DNA of 64,000 bases. Source: an uncultured Alphaproteobacteria bacterium (GTDB lineage: Bacteria; Pseudomonadota; Alphaproteobacteria; SHNJ01). The notes under the pieces are model-generated. The model saw only the letters and a program-made list of their open reading frames with translations, made no database searches and was not told where the DNA came from. Location of the stretch: the NCBI GenBank assembly GCA_964647725.1, contig CAZYJI010000005.1, positions 47,190 through 111,189 on the forward strand, written 5' to 3'. Positions within the stretch are counted from its first letter, which is position 1. Each line of letters starts with the position of its first letter. Both the position numbers and the translations under genes were made by a program. This document shows positions 18,581 through 20,696 of this stretch, piece after piece.

Positions 18581-18994
18581 TTATTTGTTCTCGATAAAAT
18601 CCATAACTTTGGACGATGTGCCGTCAGCTGGAACAGTGACAACGCATTCTTTCGCGGTTCCGCCGCTGCCAATGGCACCAATGACTTGATTGGCGCGCGC
18701 GCTGCTCATCGTATCTGGTGTGCAGGTTGGCTGTTGTCCGTTGCAAACTTGCTGCGCGCGGTTGCAGGCGATCGTATCGCGATTAGGATTAGTTCCACAA
18801 ACGGTCATGCAGTGCGTACCGTACGGAGAATCCGGATCGGTTTTACAACATTCGCGGCACCAGCCCGGAGGCGTACCAGCATTGGAACAAGTGCAAGGTG
18901 TGGTGTTGATACAAGTGGCCTTCGCTGGCGTGGTGTATGCCAAAACGCCCAAACCAAACATCAATAAAAATAGGCAAAATTGAACGGTTTTCAT
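18581..18994 (-). CDS. secreted cysteine-rich small protein (137 aa; about 12 Cys in the roughly 110-aa mature part)
   Basis: Signal peptide 'FCLFLLMFGLGVLAYTTPAKA'. A Thr/Pro/Asn/Cys-rich domain follows (CINTTPCTCSNAGTPPGWCRECC...). Confidence 0.55.
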   Translation of the reverse strand: MKTVQFCLFLLMFGLGVLAYTTPAKATCINTTPCTCSNAGTPPGWCRECCKTDPDSPYGTHCMTVCGTNPNRDTIACNRAQQVCNGQQPTCTPDTMSSARANQVIGAIGSGGTAKECVVTVPADGTSSKVMDFIENK

Positions 18995-19176
18995 GAATAG
19001 CTCCCCTAATTGGCCAATAATCTAATTGTTCATTAACGGTCCCAAAACAATATGTCAATTCTTTAATAGGAAATAGATTGTAATATTATTACTCTTTGGT
19101 TGTTTTTGTTAGAGACATGGTTTTTGAAACATGATAAATGATATAATCCATTGTTACGATAGAGAGATATAAAATC

Positions 19177-20214
19177 ATGAAACTAGGACTAACGGGTATA
19201 GGAGCCATAGGCGTAACCGGCGCGGTTATCGCCATTAGCACAGGAGTCGTCCTTTCTAGCTGGGATGATAATAACCCTCTTTTAAATAACACCGCATTAA
19301 AACTCAGCATCCCAAATCCAGTCTGGGGTGATTATAAAGAATCGATCGGATGGTCCTCCGCCGCCAAGTTTGAATTAAAGGGCAATAATTTATCTGGCCT
19401 TACCGCCAATCCAGCCAATCCAACTATTACCGATTTACTCCCCGCCTTTGCGCCGGAAAATTCCAGCGATGAAAAAGCCTGGAATGGTTTCAAAGTCAAA
19501 GGAGCCACCGCCGATTGGGGCGCGATATTCCCGAATCAACCCTATCTGTATATTGAATATGGTCCGCACCGCGGGTTCGAAGCGCCATTAAATGAAATGA
19601 TCCAGCAAGCCCACAGCGCGCGAATTTCAGAAACAATTTGGGCCGTGCCATCCAAGGCGCATCCGGGTCAATATCATGTAGTCATCGCCTTGCGTAAAAC
19701 ACCGGCTACGGAAACCGAAATCAAACAATGGGCCACTTTTGCCGGAACGCAAACCGTGGCCATGACCCAGGCATTGGAAACAATGCCGGAAAATTCTCTG
19801 CCAGAAAGCCGCAATGCGGACGTGCCATCGCAAATCGCCACGGTTTCCTTGAACGCAGAAGAAGGCCCAACCATCACCCTGCAAGGAATTGCATTCAAAG
19901 AACGCGCGGCACAATTAGCCCCCAAAGAGCAATTTCCGCAGCCAATGATTTTACAAAGTCCGCAATTCATTGAAACACAAAAAGGCGATTATATATTTGC
20001 AACCGGATATATGGCGCCGAATTTCGCCAGCAATTACGCGGTAACTTTGCGCGCCGCAACAGCGGGTGGCGAAAAAGCCTTGTACAAAGACGAGCCAACA
20101 AATCCGGTTTCGGTCAATGTAGTGCAAAATATAACAACCACAGGCAACCATAGTAGCGTCCAAACCGCCAATGTTATGATTTTATCGGGACCAAGAACTA
20201 TAGGCTCTCGATGA
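19177..20214 (+). CDS. hypothetical membrane-anchored protein (345 aa)
   Basis: N-terminal TM 'GIGAIGVTGAVIAISTGVVL'. It is divergent from the Cys-rich gene and overlaps the next ORF by 4 nt. Confidence 0.5.
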   Translation: MKLGLTGIGAIGVTGAVIAISTGVVLSSWDDNNPLLNNTALKLSIPNPVWGDYKESIGWSSAAKFELKGNNLSGLTANPANPTITDLLPAFAPENSSDEKAWNGFKVKGATADWGAIFPNQPYLYIEYGPHRGFEAPLNEMIQQAHSARISETIWAVPSKAHPGQYHVVIALRKTPATETEIKQWATFAGTQTVAMTQALETMPENSLPESRNADVPSQIATVSLNAEEGPTITLQGIAFKERAAQLAPKEQFPQPMILQSPQFIETQKGDYIFATGYMAPNFASNYAVTLRAATAGGEKALYKDEPTNPVSVNVVQNITTTGNHSSVQTANVMILSGPRTIGSR

Positions 20215-20696
20215 AACCACAAGGTAACCGCCGACTATTCGCCTGGGGCCTTGCTACTGGATTGGTGCTTGGAAGTGTTTCGGTTGTCTTTGGACCAACA
20301 GTTTACAAAAATCTAACCGCGCTCACAACACCGCGCCTTGTCGAAGGAAAAACATTCTATCCGCGCAGCCCCGGCTATCCGGTGGAATGGAGAATATTTT
20401 ATGATTCCGGCAATGTGATTGATCCGTGGATTTATGTTCGCAAGCAAACCATGGCTGATGGAACCGTGCAAACTACCGAATGCGACGCGGCTACTTTCCA
20501 AAAACAATATCCTTTAGACGCTGGAGTGGCGATATTGCCTGGCAATTTTAGAAACGTGGTTTCTGATTTCGCAAGACCGGAATATAAAATTCCAATTCCA
20601 CGATTGGCGCAATTAAAACTTACCTTGAATTGTCCCGATACGCCCGTTGAAATTATCAAGGCAAGATTGGACCCGGATAAAACCCGGCTACCTTAA
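20211..20696 (+). CDS. hypothetical membrane-anchored/secreted protein (161 aa)
   Basis: N-terminal hydrophobic segment 'LFAWGLATGLVLGSVSVVFG'. It is translationally coupled (ATGA) to the previous gene. Confidence 0.5.
   Translation: MKPQGNRRLFAWGLATGLVLGSVSVVFGPTVYKNLTALTTPRLVEGKTFYPRSPGYPVEWRIFYDSGNVIDPWIYVRKQTMADGTVQTTECDAATFQKQYPLDAGVAILPGNFRNVVSDFARPEYKIPIPRLAQLKLTLNCPDTPVEIIKARLDPDKTRLP

Follow-up and report, generated by a model that had tools for sequence, protein, structure and literature searches.

An exported cysteine-rich protein family and its divergently encoded partner in the rho-mnmE region of a diverged alphaproteobacterial lineage

The stretch of DNA analyzed here, referred to as the window in the following, comprises 64,000 nucleotides from an uncultured alphaproteobacterium (assembly GCA_964647725.1, contig CAZYJI010000005.1, positions 47,190 to 111,189 of the forward strand). 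Between its rho and mnmE genes, it encodes a cysteine-rich exported protein of 137 residues, whose gene is transcribed divergently from that of an exported 345-residue protein; the latter gene in turn overlaps a third one, for a protein of 161 residues. We propose that the 137- and 345-residue proteins constitute a vertically inherited, lineage-specific pair of the cell envelope, acting outside the cytoplasm. As a complete mechanism, this proposal is tentative, and we rate its probability somewhat below even. The gene structure, the export signals, the membership in a protein family, the conservation of the cysteines and the conserved position and pairing of the genes are observations, and our confidence in this descriptive part is much higher. 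The elements of the block are the following:

18581..18994, minus strand: gene for the 137-residue cysteine-rich exported protein (open reading frame call), the founding member of a seven-cluster family with six homologs
18917..18994, minus strand: its signal peptide, residues 1–26, with predicted cleavage after AKA (sequence reading)
18722..18916, minus strand: its predicted disulfide-rich core, residues 27–91, with 11 cysteines (AlphaFold2 and alignment A1)
18584..18721, minus strand: its variable tail, residues 92–137, predicted to be disordered (predicted local distance difference test, pLDDT, below 50 for residues 93–137), with 52% S/T/G/A/P/N and the twelfth cysteine (C117)
18534..18559, no strand: bidirectional intrinsic terminator of the AAAAGGGGCCC-GATT-GGGGCCCTTTT type (inverted repeat I3)
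18995..19176, no strand: divergent intergenic region, 182 base pairs (bp), 28.6% GC against about 49% in the window
19177..20214, plus strand: gene for the 345-residue exported partner (open reading frame call), with one N-terminal hydrophobic segment and no cysteine
20211..20696, plus strand: gene for the 161-residue species-specific orphan (open reading frame call), with an ATGA overlap with the preceding gene

The three open reading frames and the ATGA overlap had been proposed in a first-pass annotation of this DNA and are all confirmed, as is the AT-rich divergent region, which it had put at 180 bp. The gene for the 137-residue protein is preceded by a ribosome-binding site, GGGGAG, at 19001-19006 on the minus strand, 6 nucleotides before its ATG, and shares the terminator, with 11-nucleotide arms of 100% complementarity and a loop of 4 nucleotides, with the convergent DsbH-like gene on its other side. 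Together with the AT-rich divergent spacer, these signals support the view that it is a real, monocistronic gene. Its GC content (0.51) and its GC content at third codon positions (GC3, 0.52) are normal for the window, where the means are 0.50 and 0.55.

At its N-terminus, the encoded protein carries a Sec-type signal, MKTVQFCLFLLMFGLGVLAYTTPAKA|TC, with a lysine at position 2, a hydrophobic core and an AxA cleavage site; this is its sole hydrophobic segment. The signal peptide had been noted before, and our sequence reading finds the same kind of N-terminus, MK(K)-hydrophobic-AxA, in seven of seven family members, that is, also in all six homologs. A lipobox of the form L-[AS]-[GA]-C was sought at the end of the signal peptides in the family and not found; the cysteines within some of these signal peptides are preceded by F or V and lie only 7–9 residues from the N-terminus. 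The mature product has 111 residues and 12 cysteines, the very number that had been estimated, of which 11 fall within the first 65 residues and one in the tail. Cysteine thus makes up 9.5% of the precursor, compared with a mean of 1.1% over 49 genes of the window, the runner-up being DnaJ with 2.4%.

To identify relatives, we conducted an exhaustive phmmer search with the 137-residue protein over 1.84 billion cluster representatives, which yielded six true homologs (P0006, P0007, P0008, P0009, P0010 and P0012) with E-values from 4e-21 to 8e-6 and identities of 32–49%. All of them are 122–155 residues long and carry a signal peptide. One further match, the 933-residue repeat protein P0011, was rejected, as the similarity was of low complexity and restricted to the tail. 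A word-indexed search of 5.8 billion proteins gave nothing but the query itself, and a later word-indexed search added one homolog of the 345-residue partner (359 residues). A family-pattern scan of species-representative genomes yielded no member, a metagenome scan for the family gave only already known loci, and no relatives were detected in viral contigs and plasmids.

An alignment of the seven sequences (A1) has eight invariant cysteines (C28, C34, C36, C46, C49, C66, C77 and C84), which include invariant C-x-C and C-R-x-C motifs, and further conserves R47, D73, R79, N85 and G86, while there is no conserved histidine. Identity in the core is 43–66% within the family, compared with 85–89% for Rho. 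The tails are variable, with a length of 33–55 residues, a net acidic charge and 44–68% S/T/G/A/P/N, and the mature proteins are neutral to acidic rather than cationic (isoelectric point 4.9–7.6). Over the seven members, the mature proteins have 12, 10, 10, 10, 10, 8 and 10 cysteines, always an even number; the ninth and tenth, C91 and the tail cysteine, are jointly absent in P0010, while C50 and C62 are unique to the window protein and were gained together. As cysteines are gained and lost only in pairs, they probably form disulfides, six in the window protein, rather than serving as metal ligands.

An AlphaFold2 model of the small protein, computed from A1, is moderately confident overall (mean pLDDT 59) and better in the core (69–83 over residues 31–90). 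It features three strands (35–39, 46–52 and 60–67) followed by a helix (72–84), and a disordered tail. If the strands 46–52 and 60–67 pair as a hairpin in which residues 52 and 60 are opposite each other, C50 would face C62 and C46 would face C66; this register is our own reading and not an output of the tool. Foldseek found no match for the model, with best E-values of 4.2 in the PDB and 0.97 in BFVD, a comparison that the moderate model makes weak. Likewise, PDB sequence and profile searches with the block proteins found no match, and scans with Pfam, NCBIfam, PADLOC and PHROGs yielded nothing for the three window proteins or the seven family members. Even at E<=5, Pfam gave nothing meaningful for any of the seven, the one Fer2 match at E 0.22 being at chance level. 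These empty family-library searches bear out the earlier impression that the protein is unlike housekeeping families; the suggested knottin or defensin type, and likewise the cysteine-stabilized alpha-beta type, found no backing from them or from the Foldseek comparison. Kazal-type inhibitors, including bacterial and oomycete Kazal-like domains, were considered as a lead and rejected on the Pfam results. They resemble the family in being small exported helix-and-sheet domains with several disulfides, and share with it a local V-C-G-[ST]-[ND] followed, 10 residues on, by a cysteine at the start of a helix. However, Kazal_1 and Kazal_2 are unmatched in all seven members at E<=5, profile and structural matches in the PDB are lacking, the family has 8–12 cysteines rather than six, and the predicted order of its elements is strand-strand-strand-helix.

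At the C-terminus, four of the seven members (P0006, P0008, P0010 and P0012, from loci L017, L024 and L028) share an alternating hydrophobic, strand-like motif, F-x-F-N-G-x-x-[YF]-x(0-2)-[KR]. This motif could direct sorting or supply a strand to a partner. The window protein, which ends in KVMDFIENK, as well as P0007 and P0009 have no such motif.

The 345-residue partner has two known homologs, a 389-residue protein in L017 (32% identity, E 4e-41) and a 359-residue protein in L020 (28%, E 7e-10); a profile search with this family did not find further members. Both homologs carry cleavable signal peptides ending in AMA|Q, so this family is exported rather than integral to the membrane. The neighboring 345- and 161-residue proteins had been described as membrane-anchored; a single N-terminal hydrophobic segment is indeed present in each, but for the 345-residue family the description as a membrane protein does not hold. 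All three known members of this family are encoded head-to-head with a cysteine-rich family gene: the 345-type gene lies directly beside the window gene, P0006 and P0009, and one gene further from P0008, which is in tandem with P0006. In L020, the pair of the 359-residue gene and P0009 is located in the neighborhood from mnmE to gidA, unlike in the window, yet it keeps the divergent arrangement. This persistence in a different location points to functional coupling rather than inherited order alone, and we consider the cysteine-rich gene and the divergent 345-type gene to be probably functionally paired.

The intergenic region shared by the two genes contains a perfect TTGACA hexamer at 19053-19058 on the minus strand, which we infer to be a putative promoter element; a TTGACA also aligns in the intergenic region of the L020 pair. 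Upstream of it, at 19089-19118 on the minus strand, is a 30-nucleotide mini-open reading frame of nine codons and a stop, starting ATGTCTCTAA. A mini-open reading frame of equal length and in an aligned position is found in the divergent intergenic region of L017 (1504-1837), and its function may be regulatory instead of coding.

The genomic positions of the family members are best described in relation to the flanking genes of the window and to the four loci in which the homologs were found:

20693..21493, minus strand: flanking gene for a secreted protein of the dienelactone hydrolase family (Pfam DLH, E 1e-38)
16512..18530, plus strand: flanking backbone gene for a DsbH/DUF255 thioredoxin-domain protein (Pfam Thioredox_DsbH, E 1e-73), convergent with the cysteine-rich gene
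L017: DLH, the 389-residue gene on the minus strand, the divergent P0006 and P0008 in tandem, and a DsbH-like gene, which is the window order minus the 161-residue gene
L020: rho, DLH, P0007, ferredoxin, mnmE, the 359-residue gene on the minus strand and divergent from P0009, orphan genes, gidA
L024: rho, sugar transferase, a 429-residue orphan, DLH, a 157-residue gene on the minus strand and divergent from P0010, DUF6489, ferredoxin, mnmE
L028: P0012 between priA and atpH

In the window, L020 and L024, family members are thus found in the rho-mnmE interval; on the short contig of L017, the same order from DLH to the DsbH-like gene was seen. The block is adjoined by the DLH gene in the window and, with orthologs of 62–73% identity, in L017 and L024. 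Contigs with an identical 137-residue protein, among them a 470-kb NCBI contig, were found in at least 13 assemblies, always with the same neighbors. Furthermore, the family has been duplicated: there is a tandem pair in L017, L020 has two loci, and sample SRR27901410 probably has three copies.

To distinguish what is specific to this lineage from what is ancestral, we compared the region with the 80 best, that is, most similar, mnmE loci of GTDB species representatives. The parAB-gidAB-mnmE-rho region is the usual replication-origin region in Alphaproteobacteria, and the order rho, (DLH), DsbH-like, DUF6489, (thioredoxin-like [2Fe-2S] ferredoxin), mnmE, gidA is common in this class (window 13456-24588; loci L033-L077). 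Of the 80 loci, 38 carry the DsbH-like gene between rho and mnmE; DUF6489 is found in 31 of them and the ferredoxin in 30. By contrast, none of the 80 has a member of the cysteine-rich family, a member of the 345-residue family or the 161-residue protein, nor any other plausible open reading frame for a secreted cysteine-rich protein. The interval had been described as a large insert between mnmE and rho, a description that our comparison corrects: it is mostly ancestral backbone (DLH, DsbH-like, DUF6489, ferredoxin), to which only a few lineage-specific genes, those of this block included, were added. In the window, lineage-specific orphan genes are inserted at three points of the rho-gidA backbone.

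The genomes that harbor the family have diverged considerably. The window MnmE is 62% identical to that of L024 and 56% to that of L020 (Rho 85–89%), and its best identity among 185,579 species-representative genomes (GTDB r232) is 53%, to alphaproteobacterial, Ferrovibrio and Rhodospirillales metagenome-assembled genomes. Given these values, and 56–62% identity among the family genomes, of which there are at least three, the family marks a diverged, poorly sampled alphaproteobacterial clade. No tRNA genes, flanking repeats, integrase or transposase genes were found near the block, and Rfam and tRNA scans of the window were empty. The fixed position despite an MnmE identity of 56–62%, the shared backbone, the normal GC and GC3 and the lack of mobile-element signs argue for vertical inheritance. 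The simplest history would be a single origin at this position in the ancestor of the clade, followed by vertical descent and local duplication.

The third gene of the block behaves differently. No homolog of the 161-residue protein was found in any relative or in the wider searches that were run, and the 157-residue protein at the equivalent position in L024 resembles it only in its hydrophobic N-terminus (z = 0.1). Its gene has the lowest GC3 of the region, 0.41 (window mean 0.55 +/- 0.05). The single hydrophobic segment of the protein is N-terminal, and the N-terminus, with NRRLFAW (N-R-R-L-F-A at residues 6-11) followed by GLATGLVLGSVSVVFG and no clear AxA site, resembles a Tat signal with its twin-arginine motif or an anchor. 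This gene had been counted as part of the module, but having no homolog in the relatives, it is not a conserved part of it. Accordingly, the co-occurrence of the cysteine-rich gene with the neighboring pair, which had been suggested as a check, was found for the 345-residue gene and not for the 161-residue gene.

Taken together, we envisage the following mechanism. The small protein would be exported by the Sec pathway and cut after AKA. Oxidation in the periplasm would then produce a compact core of about 65 residues with five disulfides, while the sixth would join the end of the core to the flexible acidic tail. The AT-rich divergent region would control the expression of both the small protein and the exported 345-residue protein. 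The small protein would probably be a rigid module, resistant to proteases and of a binding or inhibitor-like kind, that works together with its partner or on it, either within the periplasm or on the cell surface. The 161-residue gene would have been added recently in this species and be coupled in translation to the partner gene. In this scheme, disulfide bonding, co-regulation, physical interaction and the binding or inhibitor role are what we infer.

Several points weigh against this proposal. Five of eight family genes (P0007, P0008, P0010, P0012 and the L018 copy of P0007) have no directly adjoining 345-type gene, which indicates that the small protein can stand alone. The members known of the 345-residue family come from word-indexed searches. 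The comparison covers only three or four genomes of one clade, so that the shared gene order could partly reflect descent. Lastly, matches to families, folds or solved structures are absent for all three block proteins, and the structural models are of limited use: that of the small protein is moderate (mean pLDDT 59), and that of the 345-residue protein, obtained with AlphaFold2 from an alignment of two sequences, is unusable (pLDDT 31).

Some of these points are shared by the view that the cysteine-rich, 345- and 161-residue genes are functionally unlinked, lineage-specific envelope genes, unrelated to one another, which adjoin only because they descend together in a part of the chromosome, near parAB-gidAB-mnmE-rho, that rearranges slowly. 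The order rho-mnmE-gidA-parAB is indeed kept across Alphaproteobacteria, several family genes have no 345-type neighbor, the 161-residue gene is not conserved, and the interval holds further orphan pairs, such as that of the 180- and 183-residue genes. Yet the 359-residue gene and P0009 remain divergent, head-to-head, in the different neighborhood between mnmE and gidA, and all three known members of the 345-residue family adjoin a cysteine-rich family gene. We regard the absence of a functional link as unlikely.

A similarly doubtful alternative in our estimation is that the small protein is secreted to act as an effector, adhesin or toxin on a eukaryotic host, prey or competitor, with the 345-residue protein as its carrier, chaperone or co-effector. 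Its cysteine scaffold, invariant while the loops vary and the tail is hypervariable, its duplication in some genomes (L017, L020, SRR27901410), its evolution at a faster rate than housekeeping genes (43–66% core identity against 85–89% for Rho) and the abundance of orphan exported proteins in this lineage would all be in line with such a role. In these respects, the family also resembles the small cysteine-rich proteins that fungi and oomycetes secrete (effectors, hydrophobins). These likewise combine a signal peptide with variable loops and conserved cysteines in even number, and form lineage-restricted, duplicating families; the present family differs from them in being bacterial, in lacking any sequence or fold match and in having a conserved partner gene. 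However, there are no secretion-system genes nearby, the window holds ordinary core genes and no signs of a host-associated lifestyle, and no likeness to a known effector or toxin fold was found. The sole eukaryote-like match, ankyrin in L024, is sub-threshold in Pfam and overlaps a ferredoxin gene. A bolder variant, to which we assign a still smaller chance, is that the small protein represents a previously unseen bacterial disulfide-rich fold and takes part, outside the cell, in an interaction of this unsampled lineage with other organisms. It would be a toxin, a ligand at the surface or an inhibitor directed at enzymes of a host or prey, and the 345-residue protein would be its dedicated partner for delivery, anchoring or neutralization. 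If this extracellular role were true, the family would correspond, in bacteria, to the small cysteine-rich effectors that fungi and oomycetes secrete.

As to the ankyrin matches in L024, all sub-threshold, they fall in a called 247-residue open reading frame (8675-9602, minus strand), which overlaps the conserved open reading frame of the thioredoxin-like ferredoxin (8675-9031, plus strand) and may be a spurious call.

Two further alternatives are very improbable. The first-pass annotation had suggested a bacteriocin with immunity, in which the small protein would be an antibacterial toxin and the 345- and 161-residue proteins would protect the producer. What speaks for it is a small exported, disulfide-stabilized protein beside N-terminally anchored proteins, one of them species-specific, in a family limited to one lineage, and the products of Sec-dependent bacteriocin and class II microcin systems are indeed small, exported, disulfide-containing and encoded beside small membrane proteins. 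The suggestion founders on the export route, which is a Sec signal with AxA and not a double-glycine leader, on the absence of an ABC (ATP-binding cassette) or peptidase exporter nearby and of any transporter gene in the interval, on the neutral to acidic charge of the mature protein (isoelectric point 4.9–7.6) and on the fixed chromosomal position across deep divergence, with no links to plasmids, phages or mobile elements. Moreover, the 161-residue immunity candidate is not conserved, the 345-residue family is itself secreted, and the bacteriocin models of Pfam and NCBIfam, the defense models of PADLOC and PHROGs are all unmatched. The comparison with Sec-dependent bacteriocins and microcins leads to the same differences: there is no homology, the family is acidic rather than cationic, neither an exporter nor a conserved immunity gene is present, and its inheritance is vertical rather than patchy.

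There is equally little to be said for a metal-binding or redox role in the periplasm, with the cysteines as ligands, as in a metallothionein-like, copper-storage or iron-sulfur-like protein: it would account for the high cysteine content, the invariant C-x-C and C-R-x-C and a location near the thioredoxin-like [2Fe-2S] ferredoxin and the DsbH-like thioredoxin-domain protein, but these neighbors are general backbone genes that also occur in loci lacking the family, the cysteines change pairwise and are always even in number, no histidine is conserved, and the homology to a metal-binding or electron-transfer family that had been named as grounds for abandoning the initial view was not found. 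Furthermore, a Sec-exported protein is oxidized by default in the periplasm through the Dsb pathway.

Other known systems combine a small cysteine-rich protein with a larger one. The chlamydial OmcA and OmcB are exported cysteine-rich proteins forming a small and large pair, and are thought to stiffen the envelope through disulfides. They have no sequence similarity to the family, which lacks the lipobox whereas OmcA is a lipoprotein, and the 345-residue partner has no cysteine, so a disulfide-cross-linked lattice with it is impossible. In methylamine dehydrogenase, MauA is a periplasmic subunit of about 110–130 residues with about 12 cysteines in six disulfides, encoded beside the periplasmic MauB of about 350–400 residues, a gene layout similar to that of the present pair. 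Identity with this system was rejected: the Pfam models of the light and heavy chains are unmatched, other mau genes are absent nearby, and the tryptophans of the tryptophan tryptophylquinone (TTQ) cofactor are not conserved. W45, the sole tryptophan in the core of the window protein, varies between W, N/Q and F across the family in A1. All likenesses to known systems are general, and where the defining sequence features of these systems can be tested, the family appears to have none of them. It is uncharacterized, and its general kind is that of exported disulfide-rich small proteins.

We also made a number of observations on the remainder of the window. A second pair of coupled orphan genes, for the 180- and 183-residue proteins mentioned above, is located at 14885-15975 between the ferredoxin gene and mnmE, with an overlap of 4 nucleotides; each protein has one N-terminal hydrophobic segment, both end in MRR, and neither matches any family. 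Beyond the DLH gene, a 104-residue membrane protein (21643-21957, plus strand) has a sub-threshold match to the SLATT domain (E 0.005; 16.9 bits, where the cut-off is 41), and the N-terminally anchored 429-residue orphan beside rho (21964-23253, minus strand) is 40% identical to the gene at the same position in L024. Between 10581 and 26993, the differences of the window from the strains of L001 (SRR27901409) and L003 are mosaic, with 3.8–4.6% in 16000–18000 and 24500–26500. The 6.4 kb in 18100–24500, from the cysteine-rich gene through rho, have zero differences, so that polymorphism is uninformative on selection there. This mosaic suggests recombination between strains or a chimeric assembly. 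Finally, dnaK is split into two overlapping frames at 46998-48897, with a 319-residue N-terminal open reading frame and one of 429 residues and a break near 47760. At the break, DKLALQ leads directly to KIELSS in the +1 frame, and about 26 nucleotides, for the RLKEAAEKA usual in DnaK, seem to be missing. The split is either an assembly error or a pseudogene.

It is rare for a bacterial protein to pack five or six disulfides into about 65 residues. Being unmatched in the sequence-family and structure libraries that we searched, the family may add a new small disulfide-rich scaffold. The alphaproteobacterial clade that it marks is lacking from the species-representative set, in which the best MnmE is 53% identical. 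The conserved head-to-head arrangement with the gene of a secreted partner offers a concrete, testable two-protein system.

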